From a virus (lineage: Duplodnaviria; Caudoviricetes), in IMG/VR virus record IMGVR_UViG_3300037462_000280, positions 1 through 57,835 of that record: a stretch of 57,835 bases of DNA. One strand, given 5' to 3'. The translations under genes and the position numbers were made by a program. The notes beneath the pieces were generated by a model. The model did no database searches and was not told the DNA's origin. It saw only the letters and a list, made by a program, of their open reading frames with translations. Positions 1,038-18,299 of this stretch are shown here, piece after piece; positions within the stretch are counted from its first letter, which is position 1, and each line of letters begins with the position of its first letter.

Positions 1038-2149
1038 TACAAAAGCATCGGCTGTGTCACTTTCATCCCTTCTACCAAAAACTTCCTGATGTTCTGCCCG
1101 CTAAACCACACCAACTCATCATACGCAATCGTGTAGTTCAGTATGGAACATTCGATGTTCCATACCCCACCATCAAACACCATCCCATTCTGTGCATTCC
1201 GCTCGTGCACATTGTAATCCACCGACAAAACCTGCGCCCCTATCCCTCTCATCTTCACAATCAAATCCAACTGCGCCTTCGGGTTCCCCCCCAGCAAATG
1301 CACCCGACGACCACGCAACTGCTCAAGTGGCGGCACATATCCCGCATAACTGCTCGGCACACTCACCGCAACAATGCAATCCCGAGGAATGTCCTGTATC
1401 GCACCTTCAAACTTCGGCACAACCCCAATCCGCAAAACCCCCAACCCACGCAACATCTCTATCTCGCGCAACATCTCCTCTCTTTGCTCTGCACGCTCAT
1501 AATCCCGTACCATCGCAAACACAGGACGATACTTCTGCACAAGCGGAATAAAACGCCTCTCATACTCCTCAGTCGTGCTCAACTTTTTCCAGTCACAATC
1601 CAACATAAACGGCCAGTCCCGCGCACCCTCACTCGAGCGCGTCCCATACGCCATCCCAGAATACCCCGCCCACGCCGGCACCTTCCGATTACTCCCCTGA
1701 CAATGTATCGCCAACAACCTCATCTCCCATACATTCAACGGGCGCTTATGCCCATCCTCCACACCCACCATCTCAAACCCCAAACCCGCATAAAACATGT
1801 TCGACCCCACCATGTCAGCAGGGCACTTCAACCGCACCGGCGTCGGCACCGCATACACCAACGAACGGCCTATCCCAACCCCCTTATACCCACGCCTCAC
1901 CGCCACCTCATATATCGTATTCCACCCATCCTTCCGACCATACCAACTCACAAACCCCACAACCTCCCCATCTACCTCACAAACCAACAACTCCCCACGC
2001 CTCGCTGCCTCACGCAACGACGCCAAATTCACAAACCCAAACGCCTCAGCATTCTCCCTCACTATCCCCTGACACACCTCAGCATCCCCAACCAACCCAT
2101 AACGCAACTGCCGCCTCACCCAATAACACTCCAACGGCTTCTTCTTCAT
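1037..2149 (-). CDS. GNAT acetyltransferase fused to a TGT-like (DUF6610-like) domain
   Basis: N-terminal GNAT motifs (VCEVDGEVVGF, IYEVAV, YKGVGIGRSL, SNMFYAGLGF); C-terminal MLDCDW, VVPK, SVPSSY, RRVHLLGG, SVD; ATG 2149 after GAAGGGGGAG. Confidence 0.7.
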   Translation of the reverse strand: MKKKPLECYWVRRQLRYGLVGDAEVCQGIVRENAEAFGFVNLASLREAARRGELLVCEVDGEVVGFVSWYGRKDGWNTIYEVAVRRGYKGVGIGRSLVYAVPTPVRLKCPADMVGSNMFYAGLGFEMVGVEDGHKRPLNVWEMRLLAIHCQGSNRKVPAWAGYSGMAYGTRSSEGARDWPFMLDCDWKKLSTTEEYERRFIPLVQKYRPVFAMVRDYERAEQREEMLREIEMLRGLGVLRIGVVPKFEGAIQDIPRDCIVAVSVPSSYAGYVPPLEQLRGRRVHLLGGNPKAQLDLIVKMRGIGAQVLSVDYNVHERNAQNGMVFDGGVWNIECSILNYTIAYDELVWFSGQNIRKFLVEGMKVTQPMLL

Positions 2150-2189
2150 CACAACTCCCCCTTCAATCACTCATTACCCCAATCAATCC

Positions 2190-2201
2190 ATAGTACCACA
2201 C
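2190..2201 (-). promoter_or_regulatory. Extended -10 promoter for the leftward operon (GTGTGGTACTAT)
   Basis: Matches the recurring motif; lies ~40 nt upstream of the ORF start. Confidence 0.5.
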
Positions 2202-2546
2202 TTTAACAAAATCTGGGGCGGCTGAAACCCAAATTTTTCGCAGGGGGGACAATACGCGGCGGGGCTGGCTTTTCGCTAAAATGCAGAAACCCTGTCCCGA
2301 CGATGTTACAATCCTCTCATCCTCGGTTGCTGCTCAATGGCGAGGCTGGCTAGGCCATATCGCTATGCTAGGTATCAATCCACAATCGCCACAATCGCGC
2401 TAGGATAGGCCTAATTTGGACGCTAGGGGGTGCTACGGCACAATCTACCGCAAACGCGCCTAACCCGCTTAAATCGCGTGTTTGGGGCGTGTTTTGATAT
2501 TGCACCCCAATAATTGGGGGTCGGCAGACAATTGTGTTTTTGGCGC

Positions 2547-2576
2547 TTGACACATTTTCGGATTAGGCGTTATGAT
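2547..2576 (+). promoter_or_regulatory. Sigma70-type early promoter
   Basis: TTGACA-18 nt-TATGAT. Confidence 0.7.
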
Positions 2577-2582
2577 GGTGGT

Positions 2583-3033
2583 ATCAAGCGAGGACACAAG
2601 GGAGGGCACGGCAAGGCGGGACGGTAGCCACGTCCGATAGGCGGGATAGGCAAGCCAAGGTCAGAATAAATACACGTGCGGGACTCATATGTGCAGCGCG
2701 GGGACAGGTGGCAATAGCCACTAAGCCGCGGTACGTGCAGCATGGGATGGAATACGTGCGCCGCGAGGTTGACTGGCGGACACGGGCAACGCGCCTGACT
2801 TGAAACAGAGTCGGGGTACGTGGGCATAAGACTGTGCAAATGCGCTGACGCGGCGCTAGGCTTGCTAGAATCTCTGGCACCTTAACATATCGTCATGGGT
2901 GGAACCCGCTTGCCTGCTGGGCTTGCGCTGGACACGACGCATACGGGGCTACGTTTGCCTCGCACGATTGAAAAAACGTACAAGCGCGTGCCTAAGCACG
3001 CAAAGTCGAAACACGCCCATACGTGGGCGTGTA
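2583..3033 (+). ncRNA. Putative ~450-nt structured non-coding RNA
   Basis: No credible ORF; many GU-containing hairpins, a candidate pseudoknot; bounded by a promoter and a hammerhead cleavage site. Confidence 0.6.
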
Positions 3034-3072
3034 TGCGTGAGTTGGCTACTCACGTGCTGATGAGACAAGCCA
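3005..3072 (+). ncRNA. Type II hammerhead self-cleaving ribozyme (cleaves after GUA, 3033)
   Basis: GUC-GAAA-CACGCCCA(UACG)UGGGCGUG-UA-UGCGUGAGU(UGGCU)ACUCACGUG-CUGAUGA-GAC, then AGCCA complementary to loop I. Confidence 0.92.
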
Positions 3073-3094
3073 CACCACTAGGGGACAAACAACC

Positions 3095-3361
3095 ATGAGC
3101 ATCTTGACCAAACTGCAAGCTATCCGCAACCAACAAGCCAACGAACGCAACCAACAAACGATTGAACGGGTTTTCCCGCGCTTGCAAGCGCGCTACGCCG
3201 CGGCCATCAATCGGCGTGACGTGTTGGCCGCCGAATTGCAATACAGCCGTGACGCGGCCACCCGCCGCGATTACGCCGCCGCGTGCGCAGAAGTGGCCGC
3301 GTGCGAGGCTATCGCCGCTCGTCTGGACAATCTGGACATGTCGGCAATTGCGGAAGTCTAG
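3095..3361 (+). CDS. Hypothetical helical protein, first early gene
   Basis: RBS AGGGGA, ATG. Confidence 0.7.
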   Translation: MSILTKLQAIRNQQANERNQQTIERVFPRLQARYAAAINRRDVLAAELQYSRDAATRRDYAAACAEVAACEAIAARLDNLDMSAIAEV

Positions 3362-3574
3362 TCCGCTGATTGAAGAAACTTCACACTGGTTAACTTTGCG
3401 GTTTGACCAGTGTGAAGTTAACCACGGTTAAAAGTAGGCACGTGTCGCTTAGTCGCATATGCGGGTAAGCGGGATTTTCAGGCTTAAAGTTTAGGATAAG
3501 CCTAGCTTATGTCAGTTGTCATAAGTTTGGCTTATGGATAAGCTATAAGCAAAACCGATAGAAGGGGTGATGAG

Positions 3575-3850
3575 ATGAGCGATAACAAGCCAGTGGGTTA
3601 TTGGGATTTTCAGGTTGATTTAGGGGATGGGCGCGCTACCACGGTTATCACGGAGGTATCGCCCGATGAGTTCACCTATGGGGATTGGGCGCGTTTGGTG
3701 GCTTGGCGTGCTACCAATCATGGGGAAACTGTGACGTATCACAAGCGCTCATTCCCAGATGGGATTGAGAAGAAGGTAGCGCTTGGGCGCGCCTTGCGCG
3801 TGCGTTGGGCGTATCGGCATGGGGGGTGTGAGCGTCATGAGCGGGTTTGA
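3575..3850 (+). CDS. Hypothetical protein
   Basis: RBS AAGGGGTG. Confidence 0.7.
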   Translation: MSDNKPVGYWDFQVDLGDGRATTVITEVSPDEFTYGDWARLVAWRATNHGETVTYHKRSFPDGIEKKVALGRALRVRWAYRHGGCERHERV

Positions 3851-4085
3851 GGTTGAATTGGGCGGGTTGTTAGGGGCGATAGTGGGTGGCGTGTTGGTGT
3901 CTGCACCGCTACCGCTGATCTTGTGGGCGTTGGGTTGGGCATTCGGCAAGCCTAAGGGTAAGGGGGATGATAGCGCGCCTGTTGTGAGCGAGCGGGTTAT
4001 GAATCGGCGGCTTAAGGCGTTGGAGGCTAAGGCGCGCCAAATTGAGAATGAGCGTGACGCTGAGTATGGGCGTCGGGCGCGGTAG
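3837..4085 (+). CDS. Small membrane protein with coiled tail
   Basis: Hydrophobic N-terminus GGLLGAIVGGVLVSAPLPLILWALGW. Confidence 0.7.
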   Translation: MSGFEVELGGLLGAIVGGVLVSAPLPLILWALGWAFGKPKGKGDDSAPVVSERVMNRRLKALEAKARQIENERDAEYGRRAR

Positions 4086-4178
4086 GTTTGCCGTAGCGTG
4101 TGGCTATCTCATCCCAGATAGCCACACCATAGGGCAATTCTGCGTGTGCAGAATGTTTAGAAGTGAAGTGAGGGTGTC

Positions 4179-4490
4179 ATGGGCGCTATGGTGTCTTTGG
4201 GTTATTGTGAGGGTAAGTCTTTTGAGGAAGTGGAGGCCTTACAAGATAAGTGGTCAGACAAGCGCGCCTACTATTTCGACAAAGCGATGGTGAAGTTAAG
4301 CGGCGCTTGCATTTGGCGCAAGCGGGAGGGCTTATGTGAGCGTTTGGCGCGTTTGGAATTGACGTTAGAATCGTGTTGGGGGGATTTGTATTTCTCTGGC
4401 TATTTTGAGATGGACGACAAGCCCACCTATACCCTTGCCTTGCGTGCGGAGATGTACGAATCGTACATCCAACCCCCTACACCCCTTTAG
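4179..4490 (+). CDS. Hypothetical protein
   Basis: RBS GAGGGTG; follows hairpin element. Confidence 0.7.
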   Translation: MGAMVSLGYCEGKSFEEVEALQDKWSDKRAYYFDKAMVKLSGACIWRKREGLCERLARLELTLESCWGDLYFSGYFEMDDKPTYTLALRAEMYESYIQPPTPL

Positions 4491-4570
4491 AATGACCCTA
4501 GCGCGCCCCTCACCCCTTAGGTGGGGGGCGTCATAGGGCAATTCTGCCTATTTAGAAGTGAAGGTGTGAC

Positions 4571-4972
4571 GTGAGCAAGATGACACAAAAGAACGCAATC
4601 GCCAAATTGAAGGCGATATATGGGGACAAGTTTATGGGCGCCTATGGGGGTGTGCGGGGGGTTTGTGTGGTTATTCGTGACCCTATCCCAGACCGCTACG
4701 TGCCGTGGGCGAAAATTGCTACCCTCACCATCACTGCAAAGTCTTGGGCGCGCCTATTGAAATTGGTTGCCAACGCGCCGGTCTATGGGGAGATGGGGTG
4801 GGTGTGGGCGTCGGAAGATGCACGAGAAGTGTTTCTTAATGAACAATGGGCGCGTCAAGTCTGGTCAGATTTAGCGCAAGACGCACTGTACGCACACGGC
4901 AAGATGACGACAACGCGCCTCCCCGCCCCGTGCGCGCACGCTGAAATTTCAATGTACTCTGACCCCCGCTAA
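4571..4972 (+). CDS. Hypothetical protein
   Basis: RBS GAAGGTG, GTG start. Confidence 0.7.
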   Translation: MSKMTQKNAIAKLKAIYGDKFMGAYGGVRGVCVVIRDPIPDRYVPWAKIATLTITAKSWARLLKLVANAPVYGEMGWVWASEDAREVFLNEQWARQVWSDLAQDALYAHGKMTTTRLPAPCAHAEISMYSDPR

Positions 4973-5070
4973 CCCTCAACTGCGCCGCTCACACCCTCCG
5001 GTGTGGGCGGTTGAGTTGGCGATTAGCCACCCGTGCCGCGCCGGTTCTGCGCGGGCAGAAGGAGTCTGTT

Positions 5071-5547
5071 ATGCCTAAGCGAGTGACCCTCAAGCATGTT
5101 GAGGACGTGTTTCGTAATGGTGTGTGGGGAGGGTTCCTCATGCCCGCGGGCTACACCCCCGAACACTTTGTGTTCTTCCATGTGAACGGCATGTGCGCGC
5201 TAGACATGCGTTTGTTGGGGGGAAGTTCCCGAATCGACTTAGCGCGGGGCACGGCGCGGGAATTGTTGGGGGCGGTGCAGAACCCTGACACGTTCGCGAA
5301 AGCCCAACAGTGGGCGTGGGAGAAAGAAGTTGAGGTTGAGAATGAGGTTATCGGCCAACGAATCGGGTTTGCTGAAACCTTCCCCCACTACACGGGGCAA
5401 TTGGAAGTCATCCAAGATCCGAACGCGGCGGAGGGCAAGACCGCGTACCGCTTGACGTGCGAGCGCCGGTTCATGTCGGGTTTTGCCCTCAAGCTTGAGG
5501 TACAATCGCCTTGCCTGTCCGAGATTATCCCGCATATGCCCCGCTAA
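5071..5547 (+). CDS. Hypothetical protein
   Basis: RBS AAGGAG before ATG 5071. Confidence 0.75.
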   Translation: MPKRVTLKHVEDVFRNGVWGGFLMPAGYTPEHFVFFHVNGMCALDMRLLGGSSRIDLARGTARELLGAVQNPDTFAKAQQWAWEKEVEVENEVIGQRIGFAETFPHYTGQLEVIQDPNAAEGKTAYRLTCERRFMSGFALKLEVQSPCLSEIIPHMPR

Positions 5548-5630
5548 CCCTCACCCTGCTACGCCCTATATCATAGGGCGTAGTGCGGTGGTGATTAGTT
5601 TAGCCACTAGGCAAAACAACGGAGGTGCCT

Positions 5631-6107
5631 ATGACACACAAAGAACAATTTGAAGCCGCCCTCTACGCAGAATTGCAGAGGCAGGATAACGGGGGTGAAT
5701 TAGGGGTATACAATGCGTTTTGGACTAAAGAAGACCAGCGACATTTTGACTGGAGGCAATCCATCCGAGACGATCTTCACGCCCGCCTGAAGAAGAAGAA
5801 AAACGGGTGCATTATTGAAATCCCAACCCATGACGCGGATATGATTCGGCCAAATGGGAGTGTGAGGTTTCAATATCGGGATAGAAAATCAGAGGTGCGA
5901 AAGTACACGCCCGAATCAATTGCACGCTACGGGGTCGAACATGGGGTGAAGCGGGTTAGTGTTCTGCGTTGGGTTCAAGACACCGATGGGATAATGTGCG
6001 TAACGTCGGAAACATGGGAGATTCAGGGGGATAAAGCGGTTAAGTGGGTCTATCGCCCAAACGACACAACCCCTAAGAAAAAGAAAGGGCGTAACATTAA
6101 ACGCTAA
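5631..6107 (+). CDS. Hypothetical protein, basic C-terminus
   Basis: RBS GGAGGT. Confidence 0.75.
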   Translation: MTHKEQFEAALYAELQRQDNGGELGVYNAFWTKEDQRHFDWRQSIRDDLHARLKKKKNGCIIEIPTHDADMIRPNGSVRFQYRDRKSEVRKYTPESIARYGVEHGVKRVSVLRWVQDTDGIMCVTSETWEIQGDKAVKWVYRPNDTTPKKKKGRNIKR

Positions 6108-6194
6108 CCCTCACCCTGTAACCCTCTATAGTCTATATAGAGGGTTGTGCGGTGGTGTTTAGCCACTGATACGCATGTGAGCATGGAGGCTAAA

Positions 6195-8048
6195 ATGCGT
6201 GGTGAAGTTTTAGAGGATTCTCTGAGCGCGGGGATTAAAGCGCTCAAGAAAAACCTCGCCTCGGCGGGTGCGAAAACCGCCAAAGACCAACGGGACATCC
6301 CTGTTACCCTGTCGGTCGGGACACGTTCAGACCTTTGGCTATCGGTGCAAAACCACCGTTTGGCCGTAACCCCTGTTCGAATCGCGTGCAATTGCCACAT
6401 GAGCGGCGCGGTGCAACTGCCCGCTGGGATTGTCACAGGGGTGTTTCTCAAGTCGCTTAAGGGGTTTGGGCGTGTAGAATTGGTGGCCGATATGGACACC
6501 CTCAATGTGATTGGTGTGGGGGGGGCAAAGTTCGCCCTCAACATCCAACGTGCCCCTGAACCCTCATTAGAGGCTGAACAGCCTGTGTGGGAGGCGATTA
6601 TCAGCAAGACCGACGCTAAGGCGCTTGCCGAATTGGTCGGGTTGGCAGATGAGAATGACTATACGCCCGCTATGCGTTGCGCGTATGTGTCGTGCGACGG
6701 TCAAATGCTGAAGGTGCAATTGGCCAACGGTTACACCCTCGGGGAGTACAGGCGCACATTTACGGGGCGTATACCTGAACTGCCTCGCGTTGCCCTGCTA
6801 CCGGTCAGCCTCGGGCAAGCCCTGCGGTCGGTCAAGACCGCAAAGTCGGCTTACGATGTCAATCTCAAGATGTTCAGCAATCGCTTAGAGGTGTGGCAAG
6901 ACAAGCGGCTAGGCGAATCGCCCATCGTGCAGGAAGTCAAATGCCCGTTTGACCCGCTCGACAACTATCGTCAATCGCCTGAAATTCAGGTATGGATGGA
7001 TGTCGATGACCTCATTACGGGGGTTGAACGTGCCGCGTGTGTGGCGCAGGGTGCTATCACCCTCAAGTTTTGCCCAAATGACCGTATGGTCATCGTTTCG
7101 GGGGAAAATGACAACGGTATCATGGAAACAGAGCGGGATGCGACATACGTATCTTGTGATTTGTCGAACCGCAAACCAACCATAACCCTCAACCTCAACA
7201 CCATGTTGGTAGCCCTGCGGGCAGTCAAACAGACCACCCGCACCGTGTTACTGCGGGTCGGGGATGGGTTCTTTCAAGACAAGGTGAGGTTTAGTGGGGA
7301 CGGCGCACACGTCATGATTTTGGCAATGAACCCTCCCGAACGTTCTGCCCGCGCAGAAACGCCCAACCCTGATGCTGAGATGCTAAGTCAATGGTGGTGG
7401 CAAAAGAGTGAGGCGGCGCGTCGTCGGGCACAAGCGCGGTCGGCAAGCAAGCCACCCACGATTGACCTGAATGTCAACATTCACGCCACCGGCCTGCTAC
7501 CACACGGGCAAGCCCTGTACAAGCTCGACTCTTTGGAGAAGTTGCAACAGTACGCTGAAAAGACTTGGGCAACGGCATCTCATTCGGAACGGGCTTGGGC
7601 GCTCAAGAAAATTTGGGAGCGCTTGCCCTCGGCGGCCAAAATTCGCGCCCAACACACCGCCCGCGTGCTCATCTCTCGCGCCACTGCGGATAAGCACCGT
7701 GACCGGATTGCAGAGTTGCACGTGCAAATGGGACATATGCGCCTGATGTGCCGAGAGATGCTTGAGAAACTGTTGCAAGCCAAGACAGACTGGCACCGGC
7801 TTGACGCTCTGTACGGCACTGCTATGGCAGTGGCTCGGATGGTAGAAAATGACGATGAGTTGCGCCCGCAGGGGTTGCAAGCCGTGCTTGCCGCACACGA
7901 CAACGTGAAGGCGGCCAAAAAGCTACTCGACATCGCCCTGAGTAATGCGCGCCGCTGGTTTGGGTACCTGCGCGAGATGCAAAATGAGATTGCAACCCTC
8001 ACGGAAAAGGTGCAAAGTCTTGAGAAAGTTGAGGTTGCGACGGCATAG
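6195..8048 (+). CDS. DNA polymerase III beta-clamp-like protein with ~230-aa helical C-terminal extension
   Basis: DnaN-like pattern (SGAVQLPA, LKVQLANGYTL, DDLITGVERA, ITLNLNTMLVAL, HVMILAM), then coiled coil; RBS GGAGG. Confidence 0.7.
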   Translation: MRGEVLEDSLSAGIKALKKNLASAGAKTAKDQRDIPVTLSVGTRSDLWLSVQNHRLAVTPVRIACNCHMSGAVQLPAGIVTGVFLKSLKGFGRVELVADMDTLNVIGVGGAKFALNIQRAPEPSLEAEQPVWEAIISKTDAKALAELVGLADENDYTPAMRCAYVSCDGQMLKVQLANGYTLGEYRRTFTGRIPELPRVALLPVSLGQALRSVKTAKSAYDVNLKMFSNRLEVWQDKRLGESPIVQEVKCPFDPLDNYRQSPEIQVWMDVDDLITGVERAACVAQGAITLKFCPNDRMVIVSGENDNGIMETERDATYVSCDLSNRKPTITLNLNTMLVALRAVKQTTRTVLLRVGDGFFQDKVRFSGDGAHVMILAMNPPERSARAETPNPDAEMLSQWWWQKSEAARRRAQARSASKPPTIDLNVNIHATGLLPHGQALYKLDSLEKLQQYAEKTWATASHSERAWALKKIWERLPSAAKIRAQHTARVLISRATADKHRDRIAELHVQMGHMRLMCREMLEKLLQAKTDWHRLDALYGTAMAVARMVENDDELRPQGLQAVLAAHDNVKAAKKLLDIALSNARRWFGYLREMQNEIATLTEKVQSLEKVEVATA

Positions 8049-8062
8049 AAGTATGCTATAAT
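8035..8062 (+). promoter_or_regulatory. Sigma70-type promoter
   Basis: TTGCGA-16 nt-TATAAT with TGn extension. Confidence 0.55.
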
Positions 8063-8155
8063 GTAATGAAGGCTTGACACTCTGTCAGCCCATCGCCGCG
8101 AGGGGGTGGGCTGAACGGGCAATCTAGCCCTTTAGCCATATGGAGGCTATCTGAA

Positions 8156-8485
8156 ATGGTCTTTGATGTGACCAATGCAATGCTCAACGCTATCCATTAT
8201 GCAACGCGGTTCCATGCCGAACACGAGCGAGGTTATATCATGCGCCTCGTAGGTTACGATTGGGGCGCTGGAACCGCGTTGGTAAAAGGAACCGGCGCGG
8301 TTGACTGGGTAAAAACCACTGATGGGAAGCTCATTTGGGCTGACCGCCCACAGGTCTGGATAAATGGCACAGACCTGATGCTATTGATAGCGTTGCAACC
8401 TGTCAAATGCGAGTGGCAGGGTGACTACGTTGTTTTCACCCGTAAGGACGGGGGCATCTTCAAAATCAAGAGTCGTAAGTCATAA
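8156..8485 (+). CDS. Hypothetical protein
   Basis: RBS GGAGG. Confidence 0.75.
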   Translation: MVFDVTNAMLNAIHYATRFHAEHERGYIMRLVGYDWGAGTALVKGTGAVDWVKTTDGKLIWADRPQVWINGTDLMLLIALQPVKCEWQGDYVVFTRKDGGIFKIKSRKS

Positions 8486-8575
8486 ACAGCCGCGCCGTTC
8501 GTACAGGGGTGTACGGGCGGTCGGGCTGGGGATGAACATTCGACAACCTCAGTACACGCCTAAAGGAGGCAATCA

Positions 8576-9067
8576 ATGCACAACATTCACACCCGCTTTT
8601 TGAACGAATATCACCCCTCTCAATCGCTCGAGGCCGCTATCCATAGTCAGGCGCTGTCGGTGGGAAACAAAGAAATCCGAAACAAACTTAGGCGAGACGC
8701 GGCGGAATTCAGTGCCGCAATCGAAGGGAAGCTGGCGGAATTCGCACAACGGTACGGCAACGTTGATTTGCGTGGCAGTCTGTATGAGGGAGAAGGGTTG
8801 CCCCCGACCGGCATCACCGCACAACAGATGCTCTGGAATGAGGTTGCGCGTCTTCTGTTCGAGCGTGGCGGGGAGTGGCGTCCCTACACCCAAGTGGACG
8901 CGCAAGGGGTTGTTTCCGCCCCGTTGCCGGAGCGGATGACGGTGTTTGAGTGGTATTTTGCCTACGACGTGGTAAAGGCAGTTGGTGAGGCGCTGTCGGA
9001 GATTTTCCTTTCCATCGGTCGTGACGGCGCGTTTGACGCCGAACACTATCACTGGTTGCGTTCGTAA
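8576..9067 (+). CDS. Hypothetical protein
   Basis: RBS AAAGGAGG. Confidence 0.75.
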   Translation: MHNIHTRFLNEYHPSQSLEAAIHSQALSVGNKEIRNKLRRDAAEFSAAIEGKLAEFAQRYGNVDLRGSLYEGEGLPPTGITAQQMLWNEVARLLFERGGEWRPYTQVDAQGVVSAPLPERMTVFEWYFAYDVVKAVGEALSEIFLSIGRDGAFDAEHYHWLRS

Positions 9068-9158
9068 ATAGTCGCGCCCTGTACGCCCCGCCCGACCGGC
9101 GGGGCACCGCCCCCTGACCAGATTAACCGCCCCGATTGGGGCAGAAGGAAACGACACC

Positions 9159-9836
9159 ATGACCAGCGAGAACCGCCGTGCGAATCTGATGCTAAAAAAC
9201 TATGAAGGCCAGATGCTGGCCGAGTCGATCTTCGAGGCCTGCAATCTCCGGGAGGCGAAGTTCCAAAACGCCAACTTGGAAGGCTCCAATTTTTGGCTGG
9301 CCGAATTGACGCAGGCCGACTTTCGCGGCGCCGACCTGCGCCGCGCCAACTTGGACAGTGTGAAGGCGCGTGGCGCCGATTTTCGCGGCGCCGACCTGCG
9401 AGGCGCGAACTTGTGCGGCGCGAACTTGACGGACGCCGATTTTCGCGGCGCCGACCTGCGAGGCGCCAACCTGCGCGGCGCCGAAATGCAATGCACGGAA
9501 TTTCGTGGCGCCGACCTGCGCGGCGCGCAAGTCGGGATATACGAAGACAGAGTCGGCGGTATCGCCGGTGCGCGTTTGTTCGATGGCGCTTATCTGGATG
9601 GCGCGATTGGGGCTTATCGCTCCCCAGAAAGAGGGCTGGTTCTCAGCCCTTTTATGGGGTGGGAGAGCTACAGGCCGCGAGAAGAGTACGCCTATGCCGT
9701 CCTCACTGAGGACGGGGCGCTGATGCTCCACCACGCATACAATGTGGTGGCAGAGATTCGACACGTTGAAATCGTGTCGGAATTTTATGCCGACTTTGAG
9801 CGATACGTTCAAGGTCGAATCAGCCAAAGCCGATGA
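9159..9836 (+). CDS. Pentapeptide repeat protein
   Basis: Tandem ADFRG/ADLRG/ANLRG repeats. Confidence 0.92.
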   Translation: MTSENRRANLMLKNYEGQMLAESIFEACNLREAKFQNANLEGSNFWLAELTQADFRGADLRRANLDSVKARGADFRGADLRGANLCGANLTDADFRGADLRGANLRGAEMQCTEFRGADLRGAQVGIYEDRVGGIAGARLFDGAYLDGAIGAYRSPERGLVLSPFMGWESYRPREEYAYAVLTEDGALMLHHAYNVVAEIRHVEIVSEFYADFERYVQGRISQSR

Positions 9837-9965
9837 AACGCCCCGCCCCCACCCTCGCCGGTGGGGGCACAGCCACCCTCTAACCCTCAACTGCGCCGCT
9901 CACACCCCCCCCGGTGTGGGCGGTCGGGTTGGCGATTAGACCAACTATGCCCAGAGGAGGCACAA

Positions 9966-10337
9966 GTGAAGACGAAAGCAGAGTACTTCTACACCTACTC
10001 GTACAGCAAGAAGCGCAGTAACGCAATTTACGAGTTGGTGCGTGAGCACAAGTTCAGTGGCAAAGGCCGGATGCAATTCGGGAAGTATCGCCTTGCAATC
10101 GGGCGGAAGTGGGAAGACCGTAACACGGTCTTCTTTTACGAGAAGAACGGTCGTGATTGGGTTGTTGCCGCATTCATGGAAAATGACGGGACGTTATACG
10201 GCAACGATTCGACGATGAGCATCGCGCACGGTCGCACCGAGTGGGAGAAGCCAGAGCGCCTCAAGCCGCTGGTGACGGCATTCAACGCTGAGATTGAGAC
10301 CATCCTGAAGGAGGTGCAAGATGGCAAGCAAGCGTAA
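9966..10337 (+). CDS. Hypothetical protein
   Basis: RBS GAGGAGG, GTG 9966. Confidence 0.7.
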   Translation: MKTKAEYFYTYSYSKKRSNAIYELVREHKFSGKGRMQFGKYRLAIGRKWEDRNTVFFYEKNGRDWVVAAFMENDGTLYGNDSTMSIAHGRTEWEKPERLKPLVTAFNAEIETILKEVQDGKQA

Positions 10338-10518
10338 GGGGCACAACACCGACACGGGTCGTCGGGAACTGGAGGCGATGTTTGCTCAGGCAATCGAGAA
10401 GCACCGCCGTGAGGAAAAACTGAAGCGTGACCTTCTGCATAAGCAGAAGCGTCGCAACCGCCGTGTGAGCCAACACAACCGCTGGGAGATGGATTGGGGG
10501 TTGGACGATGTTTTTTGA
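10321..10518 (+). CDS. Small basic hypothetical protein
   Basis: RBS AAGGAGGT. Confidence 0.65.
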   Translation: MASKRKGHNTDTGRRELEAMFAQAIEKHRREEKLKRDLLHKQKRRNRRVSQHNRWEMDWGLDDVF

Positions 10519-10663
10519 GATTGTCGGGTCTGCCCTGCTGGGCGGGTTGGCCTGCGGCTTGGCGGCGGGCACCTTCACTTACTGGGCACTGTCAGCCTTG
10601 ATGATGCCCGCAATTGCTAAATTCAAACCGGATGACATCGAAGGGAGTGAGCAAAATGAGTGA
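10508..10663 (+). CDS. Small membrane protein (51 aa)
   Basis: MFFEIVGSALLGGLACGLAAGTFTYWAL...; fills the operon gap. Confidence 0.55.
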   Translation: MFFEIVGSALLGGLACGLAAGTFTYWALSALMMPAIAKFKPDDIEGSEQNE

Positions 10664-11309
10664 ACCCACCGCCAACGAGCTTATCGCAATCATCACCCAC
10701 TATCGTGAGGTTTCCTCGCGGTCGTGGGCAGATGTGACACGCGCCGAAAAAGCCCTGTTTGAAGCAGGGCTTGCCAACCCTGACGCGCCGGTCTCTTTCG
10801 CTGAATACGCCGTGTGCCGTGGGGTGGCGTTGGCCGCCGATGAGCAAGTTGCTAAGGCTGAGGCGAAGCTGGCCGCCCTACTCCCCGACGCGACGCAAGC
10901 AATCATGGAAGTGGACAAGGCGCAAGCTGAGATTGACGCCCTCGAGGCGCAATTGGTGGCAAGCCGCACCCCTGAGCAAATCGAGTTGCAAGCGCGTATC
11001 GAGAGCGCGCAGGCAACCCAAGCAATCCTTGTCAAGATTGCCAAAGAGTGTGTTTTGGCCGCTGGCAAGTCGCCCTTAGGCGGGTTCAGCGTGTCCAACA
11101 ACACGACCGTGACCGCTACCGACTTGGGCAAGTTGCCCGAGGGAATGGTGACGACCACCACGACCACGACGATTGACGCAAAGAAGGCGATTGCGCTACT
11201 GAAAGACGCGCCTGAAGTTGCCAAAGAGGCGGGATTAGAGGTGGTGATTGAACCGAAGTCGGTCTCATTCACCCCCTCAAACCTGCCCTCGCGTAAGGGT
11301 AAGAAGTAA
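10656..11309 (+). CDS. Coiled-coil protein, siphovirus Gp157/Gam-like
   Basis: Long helix, then TDLGKLPEGMV...IDAKKAIALLKD..EV..AGLEV. Confidence 0.5.
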   Translation: MSEPTANELIAIITHYREVSSRSWADVTRAEKALFEAGLANPDAPVSFAEYAVCRGVALAADEQVAKAEAKLAALLPDATQAIMEVDKAQAEIDALEAQLVASRTPEQIELQARIESAQATQAILVKIAKECVLAAGKSPLGGFSVSNNTTVTATDLGKLPEGMVTTTTTTTIDAKKAIALLKDAPEVAKEAGLEVVIEPKSVSFTPSNLPSRKGKK

Positions 11310-11388
11310 GACGATAGCCGCGCCCGTTTGACTGCGGTCAAGCGGGTCGGGCTGGTGTCTTACCAGCTATGCCTAGAGGAGGCACAAC

Positions 11389-18235: not shown

Positions 18236-18299
18236 AAAAAACAACAAAAACCCGCCACATTTGAGCGTGCCGTAAGGCATAGGCTTGGCGGGTATAGTC
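18236..18299 (-). ncRNA. sRNA-C candidate or large terminator hairpin
   Basis: TGtTATACT at 18305-18313; stem ACCCGCCA/TGGCGGGT plus U tract. Confidence 0.4.

Follow-up and report, generated by a model that had tools for sequence, protein, structure and literature searches.

A stretch of viral DNA of 57,835 bases, referred to here in its full length as the window, carries a short way ahead of its first rightward gene a sequence that a preliminary description took to be a complete type II hammerhead ribozyme with a pseudoknot joining loop I to the 3' tail. The locus raises two questions: whether this sequence is a working ribozyme, and what the cutting of an RNA at such a place would do for the phage. 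A review (PMC6765202) describes the biological purpose of the many phage and bacterial hammerheads as still undefined. The reading favoured here, with a probability of roughly 0.8, is that positions 3004-3075 of the + strand specify a functional hammerhead in the 5' leader of a rightward replication/recombination operon.

The genome and its divergent control region

The record carries a 127-nt direct terminal repeat and is therefore taken to be the whole, or very nearly the whole, of a phage genome of about 57.7 kb. Genes on the + strand run from 3095 to about 33,800 and include those for a single-strand annealing protein, a thymidylate kinase, a DNA methyltransferase and a primase-helicase. 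Those on the - strand run from about 57,800 down to 33,523 and then, across the repeat, from 2170 down to 2, this block encoding SSB, the small and large terminase, the portal, the major head protein and a head-tail adaptor. Because the genes diverge from 2171-3094, these 0.9 kb constitute the divergent control region of the genome, and the ribozyme lies at its right-hand edge. Reading frames are open on both strands over 1022-2206, the real gene being that of the - strand, with GNAT and DUF6610 assignments. The strongly negative GC skew of positions 1-2000 (-0.52) arises because the coding strand of the leftward genes is G-rich.

Two related contigs, L122 and L123, were found by a metagenome scan, the one search that gave any relatives; they show about 85% nucleotide identity to the window across the leftward genes and the first rightward genes. 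No blastn match to window positions 2000-9000 or to the L123 leader was found among GenBank phages, the 633-aa protein had no relatives in the viral or genome contigs, and neither a search with the major capsid protein nor one with the alignment of the 88-aa protein brought up anything closer. A joint pattern running from the ribozyme to the ATG likewise had no matches in viral or genome contigs. The 120 viral loci recovered by the pattern scan described below were considered as possible relatives of this phage and rejected, there being no blastn hits to them and only scattered protein hits. The main features of the region are as follows.

1037-2170, - strand: first leftward gene, GNAT-DUF6610 protein, 89% identical in L122
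2547-2576, + strand: sigma-70-like promoter site TTGACA-18-TATGAT, 11 of 12 consensus matches; consensus match only
2584-3004, + strand: putative leader of about 420 nt, U-poor (16% T), without a conserved ORF
3080-3085, + strand: Shine-Dalgarno-like AGGGGA, 9 nt ahead of the ATG, recognised by sequence
3095-3361, + strand: first rightward ORF, 88 aa, from the ORF list and its translation

The nearest genes upstream of the ribozyme are on the other strand, and an RNA bearing it therefore most simply starts within the 0.9-kb divergent region. The site at 2547-2576 is the best promoter-like site on the + strand of this region and is likely, judging by its sequence, to be where such an RNA begins; the equivalent best + strand sites lie at 2174-2202 in L122 (10/12 matches) and at 253-281 in L123 (11/12). 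The product of the first rightward ORF is 93% identical in L122 and 81% identical in L123 and had no PHROG or Pfam match. That the operon starting at 3095 gives rise to the "first early mRNA", as the preliminary description put it, is plausible from the gene content.

Anatomy of the ribozyme

Re-reading of the sequence confirmed that 3004-3075 of the + strand encodes a complete type II hammerhead with a pseudoknot between loop I and the 3' tail. The preliminary identification was thus right, being borne out both by the presence of all elements and by an independent model (see below); each coordinate that it gave proved correct, as did its distance of 61 nt in the sequence from the cut to the ATG at 3095. 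The elements, all on the + strand, are listed here.

2986-3001, + strand: 6-bp hairpin GCGUGC/GCACGC with loop CUAA, three bases ahead of stem II
3005-3007, + strand: 5' strand of stem II, GUC, pairing with 3064-3066; C3007 is C11.1
3008-3010, + strand: core G12 A13 A14 (GAA), the motif GAAA occupying 3008-3011
3011-3032, + strand: stem III hairpin of 9 bp, 3011-3019 with 3024-3032, loop UACG at 3020-3023
3033-3034, + strand: predicted cleavage site, A3033 (H17) then U3034, from alignment to the hammerhead consensus
3034-3056, + strand: stem I hairpin of 9 bp, 3034-3042 with 3048-3056, loop UGGCU at 3043-3047
3057-3063, + strand: core CUGAUGA (C3 to A9), exact
3064-3066, + strand: 3' strand of stem II, GAC; G3064 is G10.1
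3068-3072, + strand: 3' tail AGCCA, pseudoknot partner of loop I, one base past stem II

The order of these elements, and the alignments to both the Rfam model RF02276 and the independent model R1, give the type II permutation, in which loops close stems I and III and stem II is open. Stem II has three pairs, among them the closing pair G10.1-C11.1 (G3064-C3007), and the nine pairs of stem III include A3011-U3032, which is the A15.1-U16.1 pair. The inverted repeat of stem III is 100% complementary and its pair probability was 1.0 in all three contexts folded. The pseudoknot between UGGCU (3043-3047) and AGCCA (3068-3072) consists of five Watson-Crick pairs at an offset of 1 nt. The cleavage triplet is GUA (3031-3033), so that H17 is A3033 and not G; this is a minority choice, A being found in 10 of 143 comparison hammerheads and C in 129. 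Together with the two basal pairs of stem I, which are G-U wobbles, and the reduction of the pseudoknot to three pairs in L122, this minority H17 counts against reading the sequence as a functional ribozyme.

The nested hammerhead fold of 3001-3078 has a predicted energy of -27.8 kcal/mol, against a minimum of -28.8 kcal/mol for the same 78 nt, with the pseudoknot uncounted; as a duplex the latter was assigned -5.8 kcal/mol. Stem I is retained when a context of 151 nt is folded, and gives way to base pairing with the coding region when 301 nt (2900-3200) are folded. This displacement suggests that cleavage would probably rely on co-transcriptional folding.

Statistical and model support

The bare core of a hammerhead is short enough to turn up by chance. 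The pair of motifs GAAA and CUGAUGA on its own is expected 0.78 times per window, occurred at least once in 55 of 100 shuffles, and came out at 1.2 per window by simulation. Adding stem II reduced this to eight of 1000 simulated windows, and adding all three stems to none of 1000.

The preliminary description had named the Rfam Hammerhead_II model (RF02276) as a check, and the outcome was mixed. The match was full-length, covering model positions 1-66 of 66 (E = 1.3e-4 in a search of 301 nt, 0.024 in the whole window), but at 31.0 bits it fell 6 bits short of the curated gathering score of 37 bits, which is an operational threshold and not a structural feature. A default Rfam scan consequently lists nothing in the window. 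Compared with the Rfam consensus, stems I and III are longer, H17 is A and not C, and extra bases stand around stem II; the score is lost because of the longer stems, the insertions and the GUA triplet. The hammerheads of L122 and L123 described below were unreported by RF02276 at E <= 1, and the Rfam threshold thus misses real phage hammerheads.

Since the match lay under the threshold an independent model, R1, was built. A pattern comprising the core and a GUC/GAC stem II found sequences in more than 120 viral contigs, with 150 matches among the matches listed, 143 of them non-redundant, and almost all of these were judged by eye to be type II hammerheads. Of the 143, the 73 selected were those whose pseudoknot had 4 bp or more at a tail offset of 0-1 and whose stems I and III each had 5 bp or more. 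The alignment was made from 71 of the 73; L104, which nearly duplicates L054, and L117, which is truncated by the contig end, were omitted. In this alignment 94.3% of cells pair, a count in which the pseudoknot helix is biased because the rows were chosen for having a pseudoknot, and the covariation score was 0.667, compared with 0.160 for shuffled and about 0.1 for slid partners. R1, which represents 71 other phage hammerheads and excludes the window, matched 3001-3078 with 58.8 bits (E = 3.5e-13) over model positions 1-73 of 73.

These figures bear on the reading of the locus as a chance look-alike or as a decayed, inactive relic, an idea to which the sub-threshold Rfam score, the G-U pairs at the base of stem I and the expectation of about one bare core motif pair per window all lend something. 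That reading is nevertheless judged very improbable, given that the full descriptor appeared in none of the 1000 simulated windows, that R1 scores the sequence so highly, and that syntenic relatives compensate the stems and leave the core invariant. On the sequence evidence the ribozyme very probably cleaves itself.

Place among phage hammerheads

In the type II consensus of Perreault et al. (2011, PMC3088659), a pseudoknot forms between loop I and the 3' tail and stem II may be as short as two pairs; in mutants whose pseudoknot was shortened from 6 to 4 bp, cleavage was about 20-fold slower. On that description and on RF02276, the window agrees with the type in its permutation, its invariant core, its short stem II and its setting in a phage or prophage, as well as in having a pseudoknot of at least 4 bp that starts 0-1 nt past stem II.

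The pseudoknot can be followed, free of the selection bias just mentioned for R1, through all 143 phage hammerheads. Four or more consecutive pairs between loop I and the sequence after stem II were present in 84, compared with a mean of 31 and a maximum of 45 when the tails were permuted (200 permutations), and five or more in 69, where permuted tails gave 14 on average and 23 at most. The prevailing tail offsets are 0-1 nt. There were 51 distinct pseudoknot helices, the commonest of which, UGGCU/AGCCA, occurred nine times and is identical to that of the window.

The loop UGGCU together with the tail GAC-A-AGCC is common to 13 phage loci (e.g. L028, L054, L059, L062, L083), which may be treated as a sub-class. 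The window resembles its members in the loop, in the tail GAC-A-AGCC(A/G) and in the combination of a 9-bp stem I with a 5-nt loop, found in 10 of the 13. When the window was aligned with 12 of the 13 loci (L104 omitted), eight of the nine stem I pairs were seen to be changed on both sides. The sub-class differs in its cleavage triplet, which is GUC in all 13 and GUA in the window, L122 and L123, and its phages are unrelated to that of the window. Close relatives of the sub-class might already stand in the supplementary alignments of PMC3088659.

Hammerhead clusters were described in the same paper as flanking prophage genes, and two contigs from the scan exemplify this clustered arrangement: L047 has an array of seven type II hammerheads in about 3 kb (8402-11317) and L048 one of five in about 2 kb (2702-4800), each within one phage contig.

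The window itself contains one hammerhead only, the next best R1 match in the 57.8 kb reaching 8.3 bits, and no other ribozyme family was found in it at the Rfam threshold. It is thus scarcely credible that the ribozyme works as a pair with a second one to excise, circularise or splice an RNA, a reading that would draw on the frequency of clusters in phage contigs (seven matches in L047, five in L048). Apart from it the genome gives one hint of a ribozyme, a weak match to twister-sister that lies inside an ORF at a distance of 6.6 kb.

The ribozyme in two related phages

A hammerhead is present at the equivalent place in both relatives, at 2622-2699 in L122 (54 bits) and at 734-840 in L123 (44.8 bits). 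Between L122 and the window stem I keeps eight of its nine pairs, four of them changed on both sides, and stem III keeps nine of nine, again with four changed on both sides, while the pseudoknot of L122 is reduced to three G-C pairs (GGC/GCC). L123 has the stem I of the window; a 36-nt insertion lengthens its stem III, the base of which is retained. The core residues are invariant in all three phages and each uses GUA. Compensated stems about a fixed core are the pattern expected of a ribozyme under selection, as far as two homologues only can indicate it.

The conservation extends downstream. The stretch AGGGGACAAACAACCATG around the Shine-Dalgarno-like site is identical in L122 and L123, and between tail and start codon the window, L122 and L123 all carry the same AGGGGACAAACAACC-ATG. 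Upstream the situation is quite different: blastn homology to L122 ends at window position 2552 and resumes only at 3057, and with L123 it is regained at 3030, no more than three bases from the cut. The leader of the window could not be aligned with those of L122 and L123, whereas the sequence 3' of the cut is 86-87% identical.

Position relative to genes

The preliminary description considered the arrangement, with a ribozyme just ahead of the first gene, to be the notable part of the locus, and on this point the comparison went the other way. A same-strand ORF of at least 60 aa lay downstream of 133 of 150 hammerheads, and in 51 of these 133 the ORF started no more than 30 nt past the end of stem II, which is true of 9.6% of random positions; in the window the corresponding distance is 28 nt. 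The pseudoknot belongs to the published consensus, and there is a precedent in the haloviruses HF1/HF2. According to PMC3088659, a hammerhead stands there 13 nt ahead of the ORF that comes first in an early polycistronic transcript, and the 5' end mapped for this RNA is no more than 3 nt from the cleavage site. This HHphage ribozyme resembles that of the window in standing shortly upstream of the start codon of the transcript's first ORF, and differs in belonging to an archaeal virus, in its variant core with insertions, and in its spacing (13 nt from the start codon, compared with 28 nt from the end of stem II in the window); the account of it drawn on here mentions no long variable leader. 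The arrangement is therefore typical.

Activity is also documented for the class. PMC3088659 gives type II hammerheads in prophage clusters as active, and PMC8782182 states that type II hammerheads near phage-like genes in Desulfovibrio vulgaris cleave both in vivo and in vitro. The window ribozyme is an unexceptional example of a class whose great abundance in phages is well established, and adds no new kind of ribozyme.

The leader and its proposed removal

The proposed course of events begins with transcription from about 2584, directed by the promoter-like site at 2547-2576, which would produce the leader and then the ribozyme. The latter would fold and cut between A3033 and U3034, and from the chemistry of hammerheads the products are predicted to carry a 2',3'-cyclic phosphate and a 5'-OH. 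A released leader of about 450 nt would end in the stem III hairpin with the cyclic phosphate, and the operon mRNA would start with its 5'-OH on the stem I hairpin, 46 nt ahead of the ribosome-binding site and 61 nt ahead of the ATG. In this way a leader that varies between lineages would be removed and the mRNA left with a constant 5' end that carries no phosphate and is shielded by a hairpin. Ends bearing 5'-OH disfavour the RNase E attack that is stimulated by 5'-monophosphate, and bacterial mRNAs are stabilised by hairpins at their 5' ends. In this scheme, the point where transcription starts, the cleavage in vivo and any effects on the stability or translation of the mRNA are what we infer.

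The leader differs among the relatives and what follows the cut is conserved, which is most simply explained if the ribozyme makes the operon independent of whichever leader precedes it. Whether removal of the leader or insulation of the mRNA is the function actually selected is rated at about even odds. Synthetic ribozyme insulators of the RiboJ type, reportedly the work of Lou et al. in 2012, are said to use a hammerhead between promoter and ribosome-binding site in the same manner, removing a promoter-specific leader and leaving a constant 5' end with a hairpin. RiboJ is, however, said to have been engineered from a type III satellite-RNA hammerhead, so that the likeness is one of working and not of family. 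It may be suggested, tentatively and with the balance somewhat against it, that the hammerhead marks the joint of two modules, an exchanged leader of 420-450 nt and a conserved early operon, and acts as a natural insulator of the RiboJ kind. Were this so, leader RNAs could be swapped ahead of the same operon with translation and stability undisturbed, and the swapped leaders would perhaps be functional non-coding RNAs released with a cyclic-phosphate end. The three related phages agree in the position of the promoter and have identical ribosome-binding regions and a compensated hammerhead, but each has its own leader, and this makes the insulation idea testable with reporters.

A different emphasis, compatible with removal of the leader, is that the ribozyme's selected job is to form the 3' end of a non-coding RNA encoded in the leader, the mRNA end being a by-product. 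Several properties of the leaders point this way. They are alike in length from promoter to ribozyme (421 nt in the window, 413 in L122 and 447 in L123), all are U-poor, and no ORF is shared by the three. In each phage a hairpin stands 3-6 nt ahead of the ribozyme; that of the window (2986-3001) has a predicted energy of -10.4 kcal/mol and z -2.8, and in its place L122 and L123 have a 7-bp hairpin of other sequence with z -4.0. L122 (2294-2479) and L123 (385-570) moreover have in common a structured domain in their leaders, about 185 nt long. Of the 69 pairs predicted for it, 18 differ in both bases and still pair, a count that comes from two sequences only.

The window does not bear this out. 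Model R2, made from the 185-nt domain, found nothing better in the window leader than 8.8 bits (E = 0.76), and no other sequence with the same leader as the window was found. The window leader was also considered as a structured RNA in its own right and set aside, its fold being undistinctive (z -1.87, with 6 of 100 shuffles equally good). As to the domain itself, it had no Rfam match at E <= 1, and R2 had no matches in 120 viral loci and two genome loci. A pattern derived from it gave no viral matches and two genome matches, neither of which matched R2 or R1. The proposal that the leader RNA is what is selected is accordingly held to be doubtful, with perhaps one chance in a few of being right.

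The leader could also act upon the ribozyme, by pairing with it, blocking cleavage and so tuning early expression. An exact 8-nt complement at 2937-2944 spans the cleavage site (3031-3038), and a second copy of the tail motif, AGGCAAGCCA, occurs in the leader at 2648-2657. Chance 8-mers are nevertheless estimated at about 0.5 for a 70-nt target and a 450-nt leader, and the best duplex between leader and ribozyme was matched by 97, 70 and 97 of 200 shuffled leaders in the three phages, which makes a conditional switch of this kind improbable.

Other features of the genome

A number of further observations were made in the course of this work. Within the control region, GCTAGG and CCACAATCG recur in the conserved stretch 2330-2440 and might serve as operators, and TACGTG occurs four times on the + strand of 2732-3025, some 300 nt that lie in the leader and reach the stem III loop, compared with 17 times on the + strand of the whole window. 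The twister-sister match (RF02681) at 9662-9733 on the + strand scored 25.6 bits against a threshold of 34 with one stem missing; it lies within a pentapeptide-repeat ORF (9159-9836) and is probably due to chance. Two copies of a long intergenic hairpin, 89-94% alike, are present on the + strand at 4965-5026 and 9876-9939; each has about 23 pairs (z -6.2 and -3.9 respectively) and no U-run behind it, and L122 also has a copy. On the - strand, 18250-18292 is a near-consensus abiF-motif RNA (RF03085; 33.8 bits, gathering score 37), with one mismatch among the aligned consensus letters and one inserted base. It is preceded by a terminator-like hairpin and a TATACT box and has a U-run behind it, and looks like a stand-alone small RNA gene within the block of + strand genes.
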